Assembly (NCBI GenBank): GCA_002347615.1
Contig: DDYH01000022.1
Coordinates: 1,578 to 65,577 of the forward strand
From: Gallionellaceae bacterium UBA2239
Lineage (GTDB): Bacteria > Pseudomonadota > Gammaproteobacteria > Burkholderiales > UBA9220
Length of the DNA: 64,000 bases
Reading direction: 5' to 3'
The notes under the pieces are model-generated. The model did not search any database, had not been told where the DNA came from, and saw nothing but the letters and a program-made list of their open reading frames with translations. Below, piece by piece: positions 29,706-37,619 of this stretch; position 1 is the first letter of the stretch, and every line of letters begins with the position of its first letter. The position numbers and the translations under genes are program-made.

Positions 29706-29960
29706 ATGAAGCGAAAGCACCAGCGTACCCTTGAACTGATCTTCACCCGGCCTGTGTCGGCGAATGTTCGCTGGGCTGACATCGAGGCGCTGTTCGTCGA
29801 AATGGGCGGGCAAGTGGCCGAACGGGAAGGTTCGCGCGTGCTGGTGCGCTTGTTTGGCGATAGGCGGGTTTTCCATCGTCCGCATCCCGAGCCGACGACA
29901 GACAAGGGCGCGGTGGAGGCGATCCGCAAGTGGCTGGAAGATCACGGAGTAAAACCATGA
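29706..29960 (+). CDS. hicA: HicA family type II toxin (mRNA interferase)
   Basis: MKRKHQRTLELIFTRPVSANVRWADIEALFVEMGGQVAEREGSRVLV...HRPHP is the HicA pattern. 84 aa. Confidence 0.8.
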   Translation: MKRKHQRTLELIFTRPVSANVRWADIEALFVEMGGQVAEREGSRVLVRLFGDRRVFHRPHPEPTTDKGAVEAIRKWLEDHGVKP

Positions 29961-30292
29961 ATACCATGACGATCAACGGTTATCAGGCAGTCATCTCGTA
30001 TGACCCGGACATCCAGATGTTCCGGGGGGAGTTCGTCGGCTTGAATGGCGGTGCCGACTTCTACGCCAAGGATGTGGATGGCCTGCGCCATGAAGGCGAG
30101 ATTTCGCTGCGCGTGTTCCTCGAAGCCTGCGCCGAGGATGGCGTCGATCCGCGCAAGCACTTTTCCGGCAAGTTCTCCCTGCGCGTCGATCCCGAACTCC
30201 ACGAGGCCGCCGCCATCGCCGCTGCCGCGCATGGACAAAGCCTCAACCAGTGGGCCGCCGAAGCGATCCGGCAGGCGGCACGGGCGGAATGA
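29957..30292 (+). CDS. hicB: HicB family antitoxin
   Basis: ATG overlaps the hicA stop. YQAVISYDPDIQMFRGEFVGLNGGADFYAKDVDGLRHEGEISLRVFLE plus a C-terminal RHH-like SLNQWAAEAIRQAA. Confidence 0.8.
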   Translation: MNTMTINGYQAVISYDPDIQMFRGEFVGLNGGADFYAKDVDGLRHEGEISLRVFLEACAEDGVDPRKHFSGKFSLRVDPELHEAAAIAAAAHGQSLNQWAAEAIRQAARAE

Positions 30293-30415
30293 TGATGGCT
30301 GGCATTGCCAAAACCGGGTATGGAACCGGGTACGAAACGAGCGCCCAGAGCAAGACATCCAGCAGTGGCGCGGCATTCGGGCCGCACTTCGCATTTAACG
30401 TCTGATTTTCTGCAT

Positions 30416-31174
30416 CTACTCCAGGTGCAGGGTGTTGTAGTACACCAATAGGGCCTGGAGGGTGTCCATGGCATCCTCCGACAGGGCTTCGAGACCCTGG
30501 TGGAAGTCGAGGGAGTCGAGAATGGCCTTGCCCTTCGTGTCGTCGTTCATGGCGACCAGGGTCTGGCGGATTTCCTCCTTCCGTTCCGCCCATTCCGGCG
30601 AAATGCAGAAGCAGTGAAAGGCGATACCGTCACTGCTTTCCGCCACCATGTTGAATTCCTGGCGGGAGGTGTCGGACATGCTGTGCCACGTTTCGTTGAA
30701 CACGAAGGCTAGGTCGGTATCGTGTTTCAGCACCGCATGGGCGGCTTTCATGTGGTTGCCCACCAGCTTGAATTCGCAGTATTCCCGGTGGATGCCCAGG
30801 TTTTCCAGCACGGATAGCCCCAGGGTGTGGACGATCAGTTTGTCCGAGGCGGATGCGACGCGGATCGGGCGTCCTTCCGGAAGGCCTTCTCCCTGGCGGG
30901 AAATCAGCAGCGTCTCGTCGTAAAGTCCCGCAACTTTGGCGATAGGAATGAAGCCCAGTTCCTGGATGAAAGCGCAGGCACTGAACGGATTGGCATAGAC
31001 CAGGTGGTAGCCGCCGGCCAGCACCGCTTCACGCTCGGCGTTGAAGTTGTCCTGGGGCTCGAAATGGATACCGTGGCCAAGCCGGCGCTGAAGGTAGGTG
31101 TTGAAATAGAACCACTCCACCATGTGCTTGGCGGTGTCGTGGGGGCAGACGGATAGTTGGAATTTCGCACTCAT
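30416..31174 (-). CDS. PhnD/phosphonate-type substrate-binding-fold protein without signal peptide
   Basis: 252 aa. Starts directly with the first beta-strand (MSAKFQLSVCPHDTAKH..WFYFNTYLQRRLG). Type-2 periplasmic-binding-fold pattern with no leader or lipobox. Confidence 0.6.
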   Translation of the reverse strand: MSAKFQLSVCPHDTAKHMVEWFYFNTYLQRRLGHGIHFEPQDNFNAEREAVLAGGYHLVYANPFSACAFIQELGFIPIAKVAGLYDETLLISRQGEGLPEGRPIRVASASDKLIVHTLGLSVLENLGIHREYCEFKLVGNHMKAAHAVLKHDTDLAFVFNETWHSMSDTSRQEFNMVAESSDGIAFHCFCISPEWAERKEEIRQTLVAMNDDTKGKAILDSLDFHQGLEALSEDAMDTLQALLVYYNTLHLE

Positions 31175-31290
31175 GAGTCCTCCTTGCCGCGCTCACCGGA
31201 AAACGGCAGGGTGCCGCCGGCATTGCGGGAACCTGTCCCGGAGCGGCATGGATGGTTGTTCTTCATCGGCGGGAGCGAGCGTGTTCCCGG

Positions 31291-31653
31291 CTACAGTATC
31301 TCGGAAATGCTCTTTGCCGCCCGTTTGGCGTCCAGGAAAATCAGGCCCAGCTTGGCTTCCTTGCGTGCGATGACGGTCAGCACGGCGTCCTTGCCTGCAT
31401 GGCTCATGAGGATGTAGCCGTTTTCCCCCTTTACCATCACTTGTTCCAGTTCCCCCCGCGTCAATTCCCGGGCGGTGCGTTCACCCAGGGAGAGCATGGC
31501 GGCGGCCATGGCGCCGACGCGGTCTTCGTCCACGTCCTGGGGTAGCAGGGCCGCCATGGTCAAGCCGTCCGCCGAGATGATGGCCGATGCCTCGATGTCG
31601 GCGGAGGCGCCGTTGAGGTCGCTGAGGATGGATTTGAGCATTTGTTCACGCAT
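31291..31653 (-). CDS. Roadblock/LC7 (MglB/CvnB-like) domain protein
   Basis: 120 aa. LSDLNGASADIEASAIISADGLTMAALLPQDVDEDRVGAMAAAMLSLGERTAREL..GELEQVMVKGENGYILMSHAGKDAVLTVIA is the canonical Roadblock pattern. Confidence 0.75.
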   Translation of the reverse strand: MREQMLKSILSDLNGASADIEASAIISADGLTMAALLPQDVDEDRVGAMAAAMLSLGERTARELTRGELEQVMVKGENGYILMSHAGKDAVLTVIARKEAKLGLIFLDAKRAAKSISEIL

Positions 31654-31721
31654 CTTGTTCTCCCTAATGAGGATATGCCGATTTTACTTGGTTGCCGAAA
31701 GTACGCAATTTGCGCCTGGGC

Positions 31722-32357
31722 CTAACTGTAGCGGCGGCTCAGGGACTCGACCAGTGTCACGAATTCCACTCCCTGGAGTTGGGGGTTCCCTCCCACGATG
31801 AGCACGAAGGACTGGCGTCCCACATGCAAGGGGAAGAATCCCAGTTCGGAATGCCCGGCCGGATTGCTGATCGCCCAGGCGCTGTTGCTGATGTTGAGAT
31901 TGTTCTTGAGCAGCAGGGCATGGCGTTGGCTCAGGCTGAGCATGTCTCCCGCCAGTGCCGCGATCTCTTCCGCCGACTCGTGCCGGAAGCCGGAACAGGC
32001 GAGGTAGAAGCCGTTGTCGTCGGCGAGCAGGGCGCGGCCGCTGTCCGAGAGACGCCCCAGCAAATCGGGCAGCATGGTTTCCAGGTTGCCCTCGGGCTGT
32101 GGTCGGGGGGTTTCGGTGCCCTGCACGAATTCAAGGCGCTGAAGGCGATAGAGCAGTTGGAGCCCTTGTTCCACGGTTTCCGCCTCGGCCAGGGCGAGAA
32201 GCCGTTCCTCCGTGAGGGGGGCGAGGCTGCCCTCCCTGAGAATGCGGACCAGCATCCGCCGGGCGCTGTCCGGGGTGGGGCTGGATACGGCGTAATATGC
32301 CCCCGCCGGGGTGACTTCGGCGTAGAGGGCGGGATTGAGAGAGAGTTTTTCTGACAT
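31722..32357 (-). CDS. Hypothetical protein with a C-terminal divergent Roadblock-like domain
   Basis: 211 aa. The C-terminal ~110 aa (LLGRLSDSGRALLADDNGFYLACSGFRHESAEEIAALAGDMLSLSQRH...FFPLHVGRQSFVLIVGG) follow the Roadblock alpha-beta pattern. The N-terminal ~90 aa are unassigned. Confidence 0.5.
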   Translation of the reverse strand: MSEKLSLNPALYAEVTPAGAYYAVSSPTPDSARRMLVRILREGSLAPLTEERLLALAEAETVEQGLQLLYRLQRLEFVQGTETPRPQPEGNLETMLPDLLGRLSDSGRALLADDNGFYLACSGFRHESAEEIAALAGDMLSLSQRHALLLKNNLNISNSAWAISNPAGHSELGFFPLHVGRQSFVLIVGGNPQLQGVEFVTLVESLSRRYS

Positions 32358-32363
32358 GTCGGA

Positions 32364-32906
32364 TCAGCCTTGCAATCCCGGGTCGATGGAGAACAGCAGG
32401 GCCATCACCAGGTTTTTCACGTCGTCCCGGTTGCGTCCGTCGATCTCGAAGATGGGCGGACGCATGCCGACCTTTTCCAGTATTTCGGCGTAAGCGTCGG
32501 TGCTGGGAGCGGCTTTGATGTCGGTCTTGGTGACCCCGATCACCACCGGTGCATGCTTGAGGAAATCCTGGAACGCCTGCATGAAGAACTGCATGTCCTT
32601 CACCGGATTGGGGCGGCTGTTGTCCAGCAGCAGAATCAGGCCGATGCCGCCGGTGGATAGGATTTCCCACATGAAATCGAAGCGCTCCTGGCCCGGGGTT
32701 CCGTAGAGGTGCACCTTGGTCCGCTCGTCCAGATTCAATACGCCATAGTCCAGTGCCACCGTGGTGTAGCCCTTGCGGTTGAGGGTCATGTCGGAGGCGG
32801 CGGCATCCGTGGTGATCGGGGGAATGTCGCTGATGGCGCCGATGGCGGTGGTTTTCCCCGCGCCCACCGGCCCGGTGAAGATGATCTTGTTATCGTATTT
32901 TTTCAC
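32364..32906 (-). CDS. Small Ras-like GTPase, CvnD/MglA-like (COG2229 type)
   Basis: G1 GPVGAGKTT; G2 threonines in YTTVALDYG; G3 YGTPGQERF (Asp replaced, as in MglA/CvnD); G4 TKTD. 180 aa. GTG start with a GGAGAG RBS. Confidence 0.8.
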   Translation of the reverse strand: MKKYDNKIIFTGPVGAGKTTAIGAISDIPPITTDAAASDMTLNRKGYTTVALDYGVLNLDERTKVHLYGTPGQERFDFMWEILSTGGIGLILLLDNSRPNPVKDMQFFMQAFQDFLKHAPVVIGVTKTDIKAAPSTDAYAEILEKVGMRPPIFEIDGRNRDDVKNLVMALLFSIDPGLQG

Positions 32907-32921
32907 GCATCTCTCTCCTCG

Positions 32922-34022
32922 TTAGAGTCCGACTACCTTGCGCAACAGGCGCGACAGCAAATTGCCGCGGCCTTTGTCCGTTGGCGGGCCGGGGAGTTCC
33001 TCGGCAAGTGGGGGAGCGGCTGCCGCTCCCTCGGGGATGTCCAGGATGCCGATGCTGTGGCTGGCCGCCAGAAAGTCGAAAATGTGCACGGGGGGGATGT
33101 TCAACATCCGCACCGTCAGGCGTAGGGTGACCGGTGAGCGCACCCAGAATGCGGCAATGCGCATGGCTTCGGGAACCGGGGCCAGGCGGGTGAGGTTGGG
33201 CCAGTGGCGCAGGCGTATGGGAGTGTGGGCATGGATGCCATCCATCAGCCGGCCGCGGCTGGTCCACAGGGCGACTTGCCACAACAGGGAGGCGAAGCTG
33301 TGAGGCTCGCTCTGCCCCGGGCGATCCGCTGCGGTCAGGGGGCGGGAGGAAACCGGGGTCTGGGCGTCGCAGCTTTGACGGACGACGGCCATGTCCCGGA
33401 GCAACAGTGCCCGCTCCTGGTTGGGGAGGATGATGAGGGTTGCTTGGCCACCGATGCTGATGACGCTCGGCACCCGGTTGCGCCGGATGTCCAACAACGC
33501 ACCCAGCAGGCCCTGTTGGGGATTGAACCGCTCGATTGTCTCTGGGAGCTGGTGGGCCGGGCGCAGAGGGGGGGGCTCCTTTTTCGTGGAGGGCTCGGGC
33601 GGGGAAGCTGGAGCCTCCGTTTGGGGGGAGGGCGGTTTTTCGTCCGGTGGCTGGGGGGGTGCGGAGGGCCTCGGGGCGGCGGCTTGGCCGGCCAGGACCT
33701 GGCGTAGCAGCGGGAACAGGGTTTCCACCCGGATCGGTTTTGCCAGAACCGGCGCGGGAGCATCGTTCGTGGGTGAGACGGTGGTGACCACGGCGGGAAG
33801 GGTCGGATGGTCGGCACGGAACCGTTGCCACAGGGAGGCGGCGTCCACCGTGTCCATGTCCACGATGGCGATGTCGGGGACGGTGCCGGGCACGTCCTCG
33901 ACCAGTTGGTAGCGCTGAATGCTGTGCATCCTGAACGCCATGCGAAAGACCGCCAGCTTGCGGGCGTCCATTCCCGCTGCCAGCACGGTGATGACGTTTC
34001 TTGGTATGGTTGGGTCGTCCAT
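32922..34022 (-). CDS. Pseudo-receiver / Pro-rich linker / C-terminal wHTH-like scaffold protein
   Basis: The N-terminal ~120 aa are CheY-like (DIAIVDMD, LAKPI) but lack the N-terminal acidic pair. A ~50 aa Pro-rich linker follows. The C-terminal part contains a DUF742/PATAN-like segment PVTLRLTVRMLNIPPVHIFDFLAASHSIGIL. Confidence 0.5.
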   Translation of the reverse strand: MDDPTIPRNVITVLAAGMDARKLAVFRMAFRMHSIQRYQLVEDVPGTVPDIAIVDMDTVDAASLWQRFRADHPTLPAVVTTVSPTNDAPAPVLAKPIRVETLFPLLRQVLAGQAAAPRPSAPPQPPDEKPPSPQTEAPASPPEPSTKKEPPPLRPAHQLPETIERFNPQQGLLGALLDIRRNRVPSVISIGGQATLIILPNQERALLLRDMAVVRQSCDAQTPVSSRPLTAADRPGQSEPHSFASLLWQVALWTSRGRLMDGIHAHTPIRLRHWPNLTRLAPVPEAMRIAAFWVRSPVTLRLTVRMLNIPPVHIFDFLAASHSIGILDIPEGAAAAPPLAEELPGPPTDKGRGNLLSRLLRKVVGL

Positions 34023-34032
34023 CCTCGTTCCC

Positions 34033-35481
34033 TTAGGTGACGGTTTGCTGCTGTCGTTGCTTGAGGCGTTGGTAGAGCCCGCTCATCATCGGCACCACCT
34101 CTTCGGGGGGGCGCTGGACGATGCGCTTGATCTTGCCGGCCAGAGCGGTGAACCGGGCTAAATCGTCCATGCGCTCGTAAAGATCGAGCAGCGGTGGATA
34201 GAGGTGGGCCGACATGGGGTCGGCCAGTACGGCTTTCTCCAGTGTGGCGAGCGCTTCCTCTATCTGGCCGAACTCCAGGTAGGCCTCCGCATCCCGCAAG
34301 GCGTCGTGCTTGGGTTCTCCGCTGCGTATGCCAGCCGCCCCCTGGCTGACCGCCACCAGGAGGAAAGGACGGCGCGGGGTAGGCGGGTCGGTGACATAGC
34401 CGAATTGGCGGCCGATGGACTCCGTTTGCCAGCGTTCCTGAGCCTGGGCCAGGGCTTCAAATACCGTATGGTGCCCCAAGACGAAACCCATTCCCAGCAG
34501 GCGGTCCCGCAAGGCACGGCCGTAATCGCCGAGGACGGCGAAAAGCTGCCACAGGGTGCGGGCGTATTCCTCGATTTCCCGCCGCAGGAAGAAAACCTTC
34601 AGCAGTGCGGTGAAATGGGCCAGTCCTGCCGGTTGCGCGACAATGGCGCGCCGCAGGGCCGGAACGGCTTCTTCCAGGTTGTTGGCGGCCAGGTGCAGGC
34701 GTGCTTCCATGGCCGGGGCGGCGAAGGCGCGCAGCACCGCTTTTTCTTCCGGAGTGAGCGGTGCGATCGGCTCATCGCCCTCCACCAGGCGACGGGAAGG
34801 GACTGCGGAGTTTGCCGGTTGCGGCGTTTCCTGTCGCGGTGGCGGCGCGGAGGGTTCCGCAAACGTCTCCGGTTCGGCCAGTTCCGGAATGGGGGGCGGC
34901 TCGGCGGGGACGAACATCTGGGAGACCCGTTCCGGTCCCAGCCCCAAATAGGTTTCCGCGACCACCCGCAGTTGCAGGTTGTCCCGGTCCGCAGCCAAGC
35001 CGGCCAGGGCCGTGCAGCGCAGGTAATCCTGGTCTTCGCCCAGTGCGCCCAGGCGCTCCAATATCTCGGCGAAGTCGTCGATCCGGTTCAACTGCAAGTA
35101 GATGTCCAGCAGCTTGCGCATCGCCTGCCGGTCGGCATTCCCGGTTTCATTCAAGTACCAGCGCAGGGACTCCGCCGCCTGCTCGAAGTAGCCGAACTCC
35201 AGGTAGATGTTCGCTTCCGACAGGGGGTCCACTTCGCGGACCTCGATGGAGCCTTCGCTGGGGACGGTCGGGAAGTCCTCGGCAGGCTCGGGGGCGGGCG
35301 GGGGGGCGAAGGTTCTGGTTGCCGTCGGCGGGGAGGCGGGAGGCAAAGCGGCATGTTGCGGGCGGGCGGGTTTCCGCGTCGCCCGGCGCAATACTGCCAG
35401 GGCAATCAGGGCGAAGGCTGCAACCCCGAGCAGTACCGGATGGTCGCTGGCGGATTGCAGGAGGTCGGGGGCGACGGCCAT
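34033..35481 (-). CDS. Single-pass membrane protein with FimV-C-terminal-like TPR motifs
   Basis: One TM segment (VLLGVAAFALIALAVL) and Pro-rich spacers. Two FimV-type motifs: DPLSEANIYLEFGYFEQAAESLRWYLNE and DALRDAEAYLEFGQIEEALATLEKAVLADP. Confidence 0.55.
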   Translation of the reverse strand: MAVAPDLLQSASDHPVLLGVAAFALIALAVLRRATRKPARPQHAALPPASPPTATRTFAPPPAPEPAEDFPTVPSEGSIEVREVDPLSEANIYLEFGYFEQAAESLRWYLNETGNADRQAMRKLLDIYLQLNRIDDFAEILERLGALGEDQDYLRCTALAGLAADRDNLQLRVVAETYLGLGPERVSQMFVPAEPPPIPELAEPETFAEPSAPPPRQETPQPANSAVPSRRLVEGDEPIAPLTPEEKAVLRAFAAPAMEARLHLAANNLEEAVPALRRAIVAQPAGLAHFTALLKVFFLRREIEEYARTLWQLFAVLGDYGRALRDRLLGMGFVLGHHTVFEALAQAQERWQTESIGRQFGYVTDPPTPRRPFLLVAVSQGAAGIRSGEPKHDALRDAEAYLEFGQIEEALATLEKAVLADPMSAHLYPPLLDLYERMDDLARFTALAGKIKRIVQRPPEEVVPMMSGLYQRLKQRQQQTVT

Positions 35482-35497
35482 GGGATGGGCGAGGGAA

Positions 35498-36265
35498 TCA
35501 GGGTATCCGGAAATCGGCTTCGCTCAGCAGGTCGGTGCCGCATTCCAGGGTTTCGAACCAGTCGAGGAAGCGGTTTATTATCGCCTTGCCCTTGAAAGAG
35601 CCGCCATGCTGGGGGACGATCCATTCCACGTCGAGCTGGCGGATCATGTTTACCCAAAGCCGGCATGCCTTGTTGTTGCACATGTAGCGGCGATGGAAGC
35701 CATCCATGTGGCTTTCCACCAGATGGCCGTCGAAATCCTCCACCGGCAACCCGGCCGAGTGGCCATCCATGACCGAGGCGCCAACGTCGCCGGAAAACAG
35801 GATTTTGCTCAAGGGGTCGTAAACCTGGAAATTGCCCACGGTATGGAGGAAATGGGCAGGAATCAGCTTGAGTCGGCTGTTGCCCAGTTCCAGGTCCATC
35901 CCCTTGGGGGGGATGGCGATCATCCGGCCCTCGGTGACCCCCTTGATGCAGAAATGGGGGATGAAACGCACCCATTCCTGGGCGATGACGATCTTGGCAT
36001 CGGTGATCAGCAGCCAGCCGTTGGCGGAAGCGACGATGTCGGGGTCCTGATGGGAGGCGAACACGTAGCGGGTGCGGGAGGGGAGGAAATAATTGGCCAT
36101 TTCCGCCAGTAGGTGCTTGTAGGTCAGATTGCCGCCCGGGTCGAGCAGCATGCCCTCGCCGCCATCGGTGATGAGGAACTGGTTGGCCTGGATGCCTTCT
36201 CCCTGGACCAACTCGGTGAAGGCGACGCATTTGTGGTCGCCGTTGTTGAACAGTTCTATCGGCAT
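35498..36265 (-). CDS. Metallo-beta-lactamase-fold protein, di-metal (FprA/ODP-like) type
   Basis: Start MPIELFNNGDHKCVAF. Motifs ANQFLITDGGEGMLLDPGG, ASHQDPD (variant of HxHxDH), PAHFLHTVG, LFSGD, VPQHG. Confidence 0.6.
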   Translation of the reverse strand: MPIELFNNGDHKCVAFTELVQGEGIQANQFLITDGGEGMLLDPGGNLTYKHLLAEMANYFLPSRTRYVFASHQDPDIVASANGWLLITDAKIVIAQEWVRFIPHFCIKGVTEGRMIAIPPKGMDLELGNSRLKLIPAHFLHTVGNFQVYDPLSKILFSGDVGASVMDGHSAGLPVEDFDGHLVESHMDGFHRRYMCNNKACRLWVNMIRQLDVEWIVPQHGGSFKGKAIINRFLDWFETLECGTDLLSEADFRIP

Positions 36266-36329
36266 GTCTTCTTCCTCGTTTCGATCTTCGACAGCTCTTG
36301 TCGGCTGGGATTGAATGCGGACTGGGGTT

Positions 36330-36692
36330 TTACATGGTATGTGTCTGTCGCACGGATTTGAGTGCATTTCCCAAATGCAACTCGATCTTGTTTTTCAGGT
36401 TGCGGGCCGCATCGCTGCGCCCGAACTGGACGCCGATTCCCGGGGGACGGTTTCCCTGGCTTTGGGGCGGCGTGATCCAGGCCACGCGGCCGTTGATGGG
36501 GGTCTTTTCCCCGCTGTCCATCAGGGTGAGCAGCATGACCACCTCCTCGCCAAGCTTGTAGGGGGCCGAAGTGGGAACGAAGATGCCGCCGTTGCTGAGA
36601 AAGGGCATGTAGGCGGCGTACAGGGCGGCCTTGTCGCGAATGGTGAGTGCCAGGATGTGGCGGTGGGCGGCGTGGGGTTTTTCGCGGCTCAC
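36330..36692 (-). CDS. pilZ: Type IV pilus assembly protein PilZ
   Basis: Strong match to my recollection of canonical PilZ: LTIRDKAALYAAYMPFLSNGGIFVPT..YKLGEEVVMLLTLMD..EK.P..G.V.WITP....GNR..GIGVQF ... QTHTM C-terminus. Confidence 0.85.
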   Translation of the reverse strand: MSREKPHAAHRHILALTIRDKAALYAAYMPFLSNGGIFVPTSAPYKLGEEVVMLLTLMDSGEKTPINGRVAWITPPQSQGNRPPGIGVQFGRSDAARNLKNKIELHLGNALKSVRQTHTM

Positions 36693-37026
36693 AGTTTCTT
36701 CCTCCTGCCGGCTTGCGCATTCGGGACCCTGTTAGGCACGGCGGAGGAAGAAAGGTACGGAAAGAACGGCTGTCGGCGTATTTCGGCAAGGGGGCGAAAC
36801 AGGATCAGGGAAGCGTTCTTCATCATCAACTCAACGGTTACGTTCGGATTGTCAAACATACGCCCGAAAAAATCTCGTTGCGTCGTCCGGCAATTCCTCG
36901 ATCGTGAAGCCGCCGCTTGTTAGACCGGAACTTTGCGTCTCCGCCTTTCGCACGGAGTAGCCTTTTGCAGATCGACCGAAATTCTGTCACTGCTCTATGA
37001 CATTGTCAATTAGCTTTTGCTTAAAT

Positions 37027-37368
37027 TTACCGCTGCCCGGTTTCGTCCCAAGGTGACGAATTGGAAATCATGTGGGGCAGCAGCGCATGGAGGAAAACCA
37101 GTTCCGCCATCACCTCGCGCCGAAAGCCCTGCCGGTTGCCGCGCCAGTCGATCACCAGGGACTTGAGGAAATTGAGGCACTCGGGATAGCCCCATAGTAA
37201 AACCAGTTTTTGTACGATATGGGGGTGATGGCGTTCCAGCCAGGATTCGGGATAAGGCTCGTCCTTCGGTGCTTGCGCTTCCACTACGTGGGGTGGAATC
37301 GGATCGGCCCGTTGTTTGGCCGCTTCCAGTGCATGGTCATCAAACAAGGTAGGAAAACCGCCGCTCAT
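37027..37368 (-). CDS. Hypothetical small protein
   Basis: MSGGFPTLFDDHALEAAKQRADPIPP...HPHIVQKLVLLWGYPECLNFLKSLVIDWRGNRQGFRREVMAELVFLHALL. No family recognised. The start is uncertain (the track gives 37431). Confidence 0.4.
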   Translation of the reverse strand: MSGGFPTLFDDHALEAAKQRADPIPPHVVEAQAPKDEPYPESWLERHHPHIVQKLVLLWGYPECLNFLKSLVIDWRGNRQGFRREVMAELVFLHALLPHMISNSSPWDETGQR

Positions 37369-37496
37369 CTTTGAACCCTCCGCTGAATCCAAAAACAGCA
37401 CCAGTATCAGTGGTATTTCTGGGGCTGTCAATATAAGGGCTTGCTGATGAAATGGCCCCTAAGGCCCTGTTTGTAAAGGGTGCGGGTTGGCGGGGC

Positions 37497-37542: not shown

Positions 37543-37619
37543 GGTGATATAGCTCAGTTGGTTAGAGCACAGCACTCATAATGCTGGGGTCGGTGGTTCA
37601 AGTCCACCTATCACCACCA
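37543..37619 (+). tRNA. tRNA-Met (anticodon CAU, elongator-like), CCA encoded
   Basis: Acceptor ggtgata/tatcacc; D-arm gctcagttggttagagc; anticodon stem cagca/tgctg with loop ctCATaa; T-arm ggtggttcaagtccacc. Confidence 0.9.

Follow-up and report, generated by a model that had tools for sequence, protein, structure and literature searches.

Prokaryotic small GTPases of the MglA family have been divided by comparative genomics into five groups, of which Group 2 is the actinobacterial conservon and Group 3 is found "almost exclusively" in beta- and gamma-Proteobacteria, including Neisseria, Stenotrophomonas and Xanthomonas (Wuichet & Sogaard-Andersen 2014, PMC4316618). Group 3 is tabulated there with the gene neighbourhood DUF>MglA>MglB>MglB, its GTPases being 178 residues long in Neisseria, 188 in Acidithiobacillus and 178 in Leptothrix; the DUF is built of a receiver-like N-terminus and a conserved C-terminus joined by a variable linker, and the GTPases have an unusual G5 motif (D-A-R type) and a G4 motif that often lacks its Lys (PMC4316618). 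In Snodgrassella the Group 3 locus has been named the "mgl operon", its mglB genes were beneficial for gut colonisation in an earlier transposon-sequencing screen, and mutation of an orphan mglB altered the flares and edges of soft-agar colonies (PMC11112851). A literature search found no further experimental work on Group 3 systems, and none on the gene set that we describe here: eight genes at positions 30416-36692 of a 64,000-nucleotide (nt) stretch from Gallionellaceae bacterium UBA2239 (contig DDYH01000022.1), the whole of which we call the window. We conclude that this locus is probably a Group 3 MglA small-GTPase system in an extended, lineage-specific form that works by the mechanism proposed below.

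Judged by sequence and gene order, the window's GTPase, its receiver-like DUF and its two different Roadblock genes are the published Group 3 gene set. A first-pass annotation of the window had described the locus as a previously uncharacterised module matching none known. For the core this is wrong, because the GTPase is closely related to listed Group 3 members and has the same neighbour architecture; moreover, the locus already has a name and phenotypes in Snodgrassella (PMC11112851). That annotation was right to set the locus apart from both the Myxococcus MglA/MglB/RomR set and the conservon, and to see in it a small-GTPase/Roadblock module with accessory sensor-type genes. New beyond the published description of Group 3 are a universal partner protein with TPR repeats, an association of ODP-family genes with Roadblock genes and a cyclic di-GMP (c-di-GMP) riboswitch, the last overlooked in the first reading. 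The features of the locus, in the direction of transcription, are:

36981..37009, minus strand: sigma-70-like promoter candidate (TTGACA, 17-nt spacer, TG-CAGAAT)
36886..36972, minus strand: c-di-GMP-I (GEMM-I) riboswitch aptamer (Rfam RF01051, 50.9 bits)
36330..36692, minus strand: pilZ, predicted type IV pilus assembly protein of the PA2960/XAC1133 type, 120 residues (Pfam PilZ, 2.4e-11)
35498..36265, minus strand: predicted ODP-family di-iron protein with metallo-beta-lactamase fold, 255 residues (Pfam ODP, 4.5e-72)
34033..35481, minus strand: predicted single-pass membrane TPR protein (borderline Pfam TPR matches)
32922..34022, minus strand: Group 3 "DUF", receiver-like protein, 366 residues (no Pfam family; AlphaFold2 and Foldseek)
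32364..32906, minus strand: MglA-family Group 3 small GTPase, 180 residues (Pfam ATP_bind_1, 1.7e-16)
31722..32357, minus strand: divergent Roadblock/MglB-like protein, 211 residues (Pfam Robl_LC7, 4e-4, below cut-off)
31291..31653, minus strand: canonical Roadblock/LC7 protein (MglB/CvnB type), 120 residues (Pfam Roadblock, 2e-18)
30416..31174, minus strand: leaderless PhnD/SsuA-fold protein, 252 residues (Pfam Phosphonate-bd, 2.4e-30)

All eight open reading frames (ORFs) lie on the minus strand as a co-directional set, and the same eight genes appear in three public gene calls made on identical metagenome contigs. Read from pilZ to the PhnD-like gene, the recomputed intergenic gaps are 64, 16, 10, 15, 6, 68 and 116 nt, in agreement with the tight packing first described (6-16 nt in the core, 64-116 nt at the edges). 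The coordinates in the first-pass annotation hold with the exception of the metallo-beta-lactamase gene, whose start, read there as 36367, is placed at 36265 by the three public gene calls. No terminator-like site was found on the minus strand anywhere in the cluster, and the window contains no third (orphan) Roadblock gene.

Group 3 membership and the five-gene core

The GTPase belongs to the Ras superfamily, with Roc and Ras matches in addition to ATP_bind_1. It carries the motifs first reported for it, G1 GPVGAGKT, a G3 without Asp (YGTPGQ) and G4 TKTD, together with a G5 formed by D156-G-R158; in an alignment of 14 homologues most G1, G3 and G4 residues are invariant, as are the D and R of G5. 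The protein is 63-72% identical to proteins of 178-188 residues from Neisseria, Snodgrassella and Acidithiobacillus and 33-35% identical to Streptomyces "ATP/GTP-binding proteins", and it matches MglA structures at about 1e-7. The features by which Group 3 is recognised are found here: the neighbourhood DUF>MglA>MglB(>MglB) is present in the window and in the same order in 80 genomes, the DUF has its three parts (receiver-like domain, variable Pro-rich linker, conserved C-terminus) by AlphaFold2, Foldseek and alignment, and the G5 reads D-G-R; the TKTD G4 keeps its Lys, as the published "often lacks" allows. In Neisseria gonorrhoeae (NZ_CP119140.1, 1385679-1386202) the GTPase match falls in two pieces with no coding sequence listed, and may represent a pseudogene or a gap in the gene table.

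The 120-residue protein is the canonical Roadblock/LC7 protein that it was first taken to be. Compared with PDB Roadblock chains it matches 7F8M (1.7e-25), 9JUE (1e-19) and CvnB5, 3LEQ (5e-10), and MglB chains at just 0.006-0.3. The 211-residue protein has a conserved N-terminal extension of ~90 residues followed by a Roadblock-like C-terminal part. The second, cryptic Roadblock-like domain suggested for it by the first-pass annotation is supported by a match of its family profile to the CvnB5 Roadblock 3LEQ (0.0027), by its constant position after the GTPase gene and by the literature, in which a gene of this type is counted as MglB (PMC4316618, PMC11112851); Pfam Robl_LC7, at residues 98-152, nevertheless stays below cut-off. 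In an hhalign comparison, the 211-residue family and the 120-residue Roadblock family are weakly similar (E 0.046).

We scanned one genome per species with the GTPase alignment, kept 80 loci and searched these by tblastn with all eight proteins of the window. Wherever a contig end does not interrupt the locus, the genes run colinearly in the order TPR, DUF, GTPase, 211-residue protein, 120-residue protein: each complete locus has the TPR gene immediately upstream of that for the receiver-like protein (TPR identity 26-51%), and the gene for the 211-residue protein is always the next after that for the GTPase. Because this five-gene core is colinear in 80 genomes, the arrangement is not a chance juxtaposition, and the TPR gene is a fifth universal core component of the two-MglB type, absent from the 2014 description. 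Co-conservation of all eight genes, raised in the first-pass annotation, is thus partial: the five core genes are universal, but ODP is found in 18 of the 80 loci, pilZ in three lineage representatives and the PhnD-like gene in one clade and Sideroxydans.

The TPR protein has a transmembrane helix near residues 16-31, followed by RRATRK, a Pro-rich linker and TPR-like repeats that are only just at or below the Pfam cut-offs. The N-terminal hydrophobic helix is conserved in 76 homologues, and because it is followed by basic residues the bulk of the protein is predicted to face the cytoplasm. Of the first description of this protein, a single-pass protein with two FimV-C-terminal-type motifs, the single predicted transmembrane helix stands and the TPR repeats are borderline, but the FimV relationship is not supported, one copy of the motif scoring 13.4 bits against the TIGR03504 cut-off of 30.65 and the other giving nothing. 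Neither does Pfam find a periplasmic LysM domain, only about 15 residues preceding the transmembrane helix. A 17-bit match to SgmX falls in the Pro-rich region and is not meaningful.

Accessory genes and the riboswitch

The metallo-beta-lactamase protein, a di-metal protein in the first reading, is assigned to the oxygen-binding di-iron ODP family, as its match to Pfam ODP (PF19583) scores 242 bits against a cut-off of 27.2 and it matches 6QRQ_B (3.7e-66) and 6QNM_A (1.2e-60) over its full length. Its HQDPD, PAHFLH, FSGD and PQHG motifs align identically with 6QRQ_B, these being the iron ligands of ODP. In the 18 core loci that carry it directly upstream of the TPR gene, ODP is 67-80% identical to that of the window; these include Hydrogenophilus, a Burkholderiales metagenome-assembled genome (MAG), Xenophilus AP218F, Aquitalea, Vogesella, Chromobacterium, Craterilacuibacter, Crenobacter, Neisseria sp. 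Ec49 and rumen Neisseriaceae, and adjacency of ODP and core is seen in several orders.

A reciprocal scan, in which metagenomes were searched with the window ODP protein and 80 loci were kept, found a Roadblock ORF adjacent to ODP (within 400 nt on the same strand) in 27 of the 80, in three separate ODP clades (loci L104-L121, L160-L162, L164-L172 and L176). Four further ODP loci carry Group 3 cluster genes downstream. By ODP identity, the TPR gene comes next at 78-85% (four loci, with the whole core on one long contig, L102), a Roadblock ORF lies 7-31 nt downstream at 60-72% (the called ORF overlapping the end of ODP in two loci) and a Roadblock ORF lies 38-217 nt upstream at 44-48%; the loci at 53-55%, about 36 in number, have no Roadblock neighbour. 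No paper pairing ODP with Roadblock was found in the literature search.

Several loci in these surveys depart from the common arrangements. L160 (6311-9763) has, in a row, genes for a Roadblock protein, ODP, an OmpA-like protein, a 277-residue protein with a Roadblock-like C-terminus and a 106-residue PilZ-domain protein, and no GTPase homologue was found in the locus. In L170 (2437-6452) and L169, a DUF-like gene, a 278-residue ORF and a gene like that for the 211-residue protein share one strand and are divergent from Roadblock and ODP genes; tblastn finds no GTPase gene in this variant. Sensor-type genes also adjoin other MglA-like modules: a Thermus thermophilus plasmid (L094, 3357-5486) has DUF4388, GTPase, Roadblock and protoglobin-domain genes in a row, the last a gas-sensor-type neighbour, and in Streptomyces plasmids the gene directly after the conservon encodes a solute-binding protein (L088, L089) or a GAF-domain protein (L092, L093), which parallels the PhnD-like gene at the end of the window operon.

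The leaderless PhnD-like protein is as first described, matching the Pfam fold family and having no N-terminal hydrophobic segment. An identity as the periplasmic phosphonate-binding protein PhnD is rejected, since the protein scores 27 bits against the NCBIfam TIGR01098 cut-off of 112, has no signal segment and has no transporter genes of the phnC/phnE type nearby; only the fold family matches, and no sequence relative was found in the PDB. The gene occupies the same position in the window's closest relative, L096, in L097 (two copies), in L098, in Sulfuritortus and in Sideroxydans, and its Hydrogenophilus counterpart is found about 1.4 kb downstream of that position. Zoogloea and L181 have relatives of it in unrelated contexts. 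In the Sideroxydans MAG (L179, 3328-6747) the gene belongs to a Group 3-like cluster whose GTPase domain is joined with a Ser/Thr protein kinase domain in one protein (499 residues); genes for a 216-residue protein, a Roadblock protein and the PhnD-like protein follow, and the cluster lies beside tatD-holB-tmk.

The orthodox PilZ of the first reading is confirmed, and because it matches the Xanthomonas "type IV fimbriae assembly protein" (XAC1133) chains 4F48_B and 3CNR_A over its full length at about 1e-33, we assign it to the pilus-assembly, PilB-binding type (PA2960/XAC1133); with 4F48_B the match spans residues 9-120 (E 1.2e-33) and includes a shared THTM end. The XAC1133 chains come from complexes of PilZ with FimX and with PilB. 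The type of PilZ speaks for the link to type IV pili drawn in the first-pass annotation, but that link is overstated, its basis being gene adjacency and some weak phenotypes seen in another genus. The riboswitch matches RF01051 over the full model (1-87) at 50.9 bits, against a gathering score of 35, with an E of 6e-8; it lies in the 5' leader, ~190 nt upstream of the pilZ start and ~8 nt downstream of the promoter candidate. The latter is the sole promoter-like match on either strand of 30200-37300, a scan that proves nothing by itself because shuffles give about 1.2 matches; its -35 box and surroundings are identical in L096, where a 50.4-bit riboswitch match is found at the same place (1071-1157). 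No riboswitch was found in ten other ODP-bearing loci or in L097, L098 and Sulfuritortus, and so it is lineage-specific.

Given this uneven distribution, the five-gene core alone could be the conserved unit, with pilZ and its riboswitch, ODP and the PhnD-like gene brought in as independent neighbours by local rearrangement and the riboswitch regulating just pilZ. We regard this as unlikely. It would explain why pilZ, ODP and the PhnD-like gene are confined to three representatives, 18 of 80 loci and one clade, respectively, why the PhnD-like relatives of Zoogloea and L181 and the 53-55% ODP clade stand apart from such modules, and why the junctions of 64 and 116 nt exceed the gaps within the core. 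However, ODP and the TPR gene are separated by only 16 nt, there is no minus-strand terminator-like site in the cluster, ODP is next to Roadblock genes in three clades and next to the core in several orders, and the PhnD-like gene follows the last Roadblock gene in six lineages at identities down to 50%, including the Sideroxydans kinase-GTPase fusion. Among the closer relatives from metagenomes, L096, whose receiver-like protein is 76% identical to that of the window, has the same eight genes and the riboswitch despite a different downstream flank; L097 (63%) has ODP, the core and two PhnD-like genes, and L098 (61%) and Sulfuritortus (about 50%) have the core and one PhnD-like gene. Within the 80-locus survey pilZ adjoins only in the Burkholderiales MAG (L011), which makes three lineage representatives overall with the window and L096, but its adjacency to ODP recurs there with proteins that are just 47-72% identical to those of the window, and in L160 Roadblock, ODP and PilZ-domain genes lie within 3.5 kb. 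Independence is therefore plausible for pilZ and, because of the 16-nt gap and the recurrent linkage, less so for ODP.

Directly downstream of the PhnD-like gene, and convergent with it, is a HicA/HicB toxin-antitoxin pair (29706-30292, plus strand), in place of which L096 has mnmA. Just upstream of the promoter candidate are a 134-residue ORF without a Pfam family (37027-37431, minus strand) and a tRNA gene (37543-37616, plus strand); the tRNA and an ORF at the matching position (113 residues in the public gene calls, 117 in L096) also flank the L096 cluster.

The receiver-like protein and the proposed mechanism

Residues 1-112 of the receiver-like protein form an atypical receiver-like domain, after which come a disordered Pro-rich linker, a conserved C-terminal domain (~165-330) and a cationic amphipathic C-terminal helix. 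Its AlphaFold2 model has a mean confidence (pLDDT) of 86.9 over the full length and 90.0 over the C-terminal part. Foldseek matches the N-terminal part to receiver domains, best to the atypical, CpaE-type 4DAD and 4DN6, in support of the receiver-like fold of the "pseudo-receiver scaffold" in the first-pass annotation. The "pseudo" is not established, because the residues in question are essentially invariant: among 78 homologues D55 is kept in 78, D57 in 77, K95-P96 in 78 and S/T81 in 65. The acidic pair after beta1 is displaced, position 19 being D in 55 of the 78 and position 20 E or D in 53, with D-A in the window. There is no kinase gene in the operon. The last 12-14 residues form a cationic amphipathic helix with a net charge of +5; its hydrophobic moment has a median of 0.72, the internal 95th percentile being 0.52, and such features would fit a helix that targets the membrane.

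The C-terminal domain has no such relatives. None of the 203 homologues of the protein has a Pfam domain, and searched against the PDB with Foldseek the confident C-terminal model has no match, winged-helix or other (best E 0.46). A likeness to DUF742/CvnC, which would have made the domain a candidate exchange factor like MfpC, is rejected at sequence level, as hhalign comparison with four DUF742 proteins of Streptomyces and Euzebya plasmid origin gives a probability of 0.3%. Because the domain is without a PDB match and is not DUF742-like, no exchange-factor homology can be claimed for the protein.

The 2014 paper proposed that the receiver-like protein is a DNA-binding response regulator with a C-terminal winged helix, modulated by the GTPase and the Roadblock proteins, so that the output of the system would be gene expression and not pili or polarity. 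A Phyre2 confidence of >= 90% for a winged-helix-like C-terminal region was the basis given there (PMC4316618), some homologues bear the NCBI label "response regulator" or "response regulator transcription factor", and in the AlphaFold2 model the C-terminal domain closes with three helices (residues 286-323). Set against this are the Foldseek result, the lack of any DUF742 or DNA-binding Pfam family in 38 members and the position of the invariant residues (WQ, GR, WPNLTRL), which lie mostly outside the three helices; moreover, the cationic amphipathic tail and the obligatory membrane TPR partner indicate the membrane, not DNA. Transcription control is accordingly, to our minds, quite improbable.

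The reading that we prefer, an extended Group 3 MglA system, suggests the following mechanism. The GTPase would cycle between its GDP and GTP states at the inner membrane, with the two Roadblock proteins acting jointly as GTPase-activating protein (GAP) or regulator of GTP hydrolysis, by analogy with MglB dimers; that they are encoded by two distinct genes suggests a heterodimer. The cationic amphipathic tail would keep the receiver-like protein at the membrane, where this protein would couple the switch to an upstream signal, possibly by being phosphorylated on its invariant Asp; it may also act as exchange factor or scaffold. As anchor or effector of the GTPase we propose the TPR protein, since TPR proteins play such parts for MglA in Myxococcus and Bdellovibrio, and together the receiver-like and TPR proteins would link the switch to the upstream signal and to the downstream target. 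ODP would inform the module, on its Roadblock side, of O2/Fe(II) status, and the PhnD-fold protein would perhaps provide a second, small-molecule or metabolite input. In this lineage the riboswitch would make expression dependent on c-di-GMP, and the likeliest output would be surface behaviour through type IV pili, by way of PilZ-PilB.

Several points weigh against this reading. The GAP, guanine nucleotide exchange factor, effector and sensor roles are assigned by analogy, and a single transcript for the eight genes is a prediction. The Roadblock call for the 211-residue protein is sub-threshold, drawing on the Pfam match of 4e-4, the CvnB5 profile match of 0.0027 and the literature. The C-terminal domain of the receiver-like protein is without a solved match and is not DUF742-like. 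On the sensor side, there is the large ODP clade (53-55%, about 36 loci) without a Roadblock neighbour, and most Group 3 loci, those of Neisseria, Kingella and Acidithiobacillus, are without ODP. No terminator, anti-terminator or clear expression platform was found for the riboswitch, the whole leader folding no better than shuffles (z 0.28). Finally, the link to pili and c-di-GMP may be local, or the riboswitch may govern pilZ alone, because pilZ is found in three representatives and the riboswitch only in the window and L096.

A wider idea, which we offer tentatively as a possibility well short of even odds, is that ODP-family proteins are dedicated O2/Fe(II) sensors for Roadblock/MglB-regulated GTPase switches that bypass two-component and chemotaxis kinases, the switch of the window being also gated by a c-di-GMP riboswitch and driving pili through PilZ-PilB. 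Should the link between ODP and Roadblock proteins prove functional, signals would enter bacterial small GTPases by a new kind of route. Group 3 systems occur in Neisseria (including N. meningitidis), Kingella, Eikenella, Snodgrassella, Acidithiobacillus and Xanthomonas, where they have been catalogued but barely studied. The TPR partner, the recurrent ODP beside Roadblock, the possible small-molecule sensor and the phospho-acceptor-like Asp provide leads to their function, and one lineage offers direct coupling to c-di-GMP and PilZ as a further lead.

Comparison with known systems

A proteobacterial version of the actinobacterial conservon (CvnA-D) is very improbable, and membership in the conservons proper is refuted by the absence of CvnA and CvnC: the GTPase matches ATP_bind_1 as does CvnD and is 33-35% identical to Streptomyces proteins, the 120-residue Roadblock protein matches CvnB5 at 5e-10 and conservons too carry accessory sensor-like genes, but there is no CvnA histidine-kinase-like gene in or beside the cluster, the gene order differs, DUF742 is found neither by Pfam nor by hhalign (probability 0.3% against the four DUF742 proteins), and conservons are Group 2 whereas the architecture of the window is that of Group 3 (PMC4316618). 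The first-pass annotation had likewise reported that a CvnA kinase and a standalone DUF742 protein are missing, and the cluster genes and both searches agree. What the window shares with the conservons and with the mycobacterial Mfp system, also of Group 2, is an ATP_bind_1-type GTPase with a CvnB-like Roadblock protein in one operon, often accompanied by accessory sensor-like genes. In place of the CvnA kinase and DUF742/CvnC, of which MfpC is a known exchange factor (PMC11343762), it has a receiver-like protein, a second Roadblock protein and a TPR protein.

With the Myxococcus xanthus MglA/MglB/RomR-RomX system and SgmX (Group 1), the window has in common a Ras-like GTPase with an Asp-less G3 and Roadblock regulators, together with a TPR protein and a response-regulator-like protein whose linker is Pro-rich, and the Myxococcus output is type IV pilus formation. 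The similarity is remote, however (about 1e-7 to MglA structures and 0.006-0.3 to MglB). Myxococcus has one MglB, a homodimeric GAP, where the window has two distinct Roadblock genes, and RomR ends in a Glu-rich tail where the receiver-like protein, beyond its globular C-terminal domain, ends in a basic amphipathic one (+5). Here, moreover, all partners are encoded in one putative operon and the TPR protein is predicted to be membrane-anchored.

Two of the accessory genes have well-described counterparts of their own. The PilZ protein resembles PA2960/XAC1133 over its full length (E 1e-33); in Pseudomonas, pilZ sits with holB and tmk, whereas the window gene heads a GTPase operon behind a c-di-GMP-I riboswitch. 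The ODPs of Treponema denticola (6QNM/6R9N) and Thermotoga maritima (6QRQ/6QWO) are full-length homologues with conserved metal-site motifs. Treponema ODP is a stand-alone O2 sensor that is genetically coupled to a neighbouring soluble chemoreceptor (PMC7666581), and the window gene, too, appears to be a stand-alone sensor gene beside its presumed signalling partner; in Treponema, however, that partner is a soluble chemoreceptor that feeds CheA, and here it would be a Roadblock/MglB-type protein or the whole GTPase module.

The nearest known system remains Group 3 itself, as represented by the Snodgrassella mgl operon. The gene set and its order, the three-part DUF, the G3 without Asp and the D-x-R G5 are the same. 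The window differs from the published description in its TKTD G4, which retains the Lys that Group 3 often lacks, and in its TPR gene, ODP, PhnD-like gene, pilZ and riboswitch, none of which is listed there.

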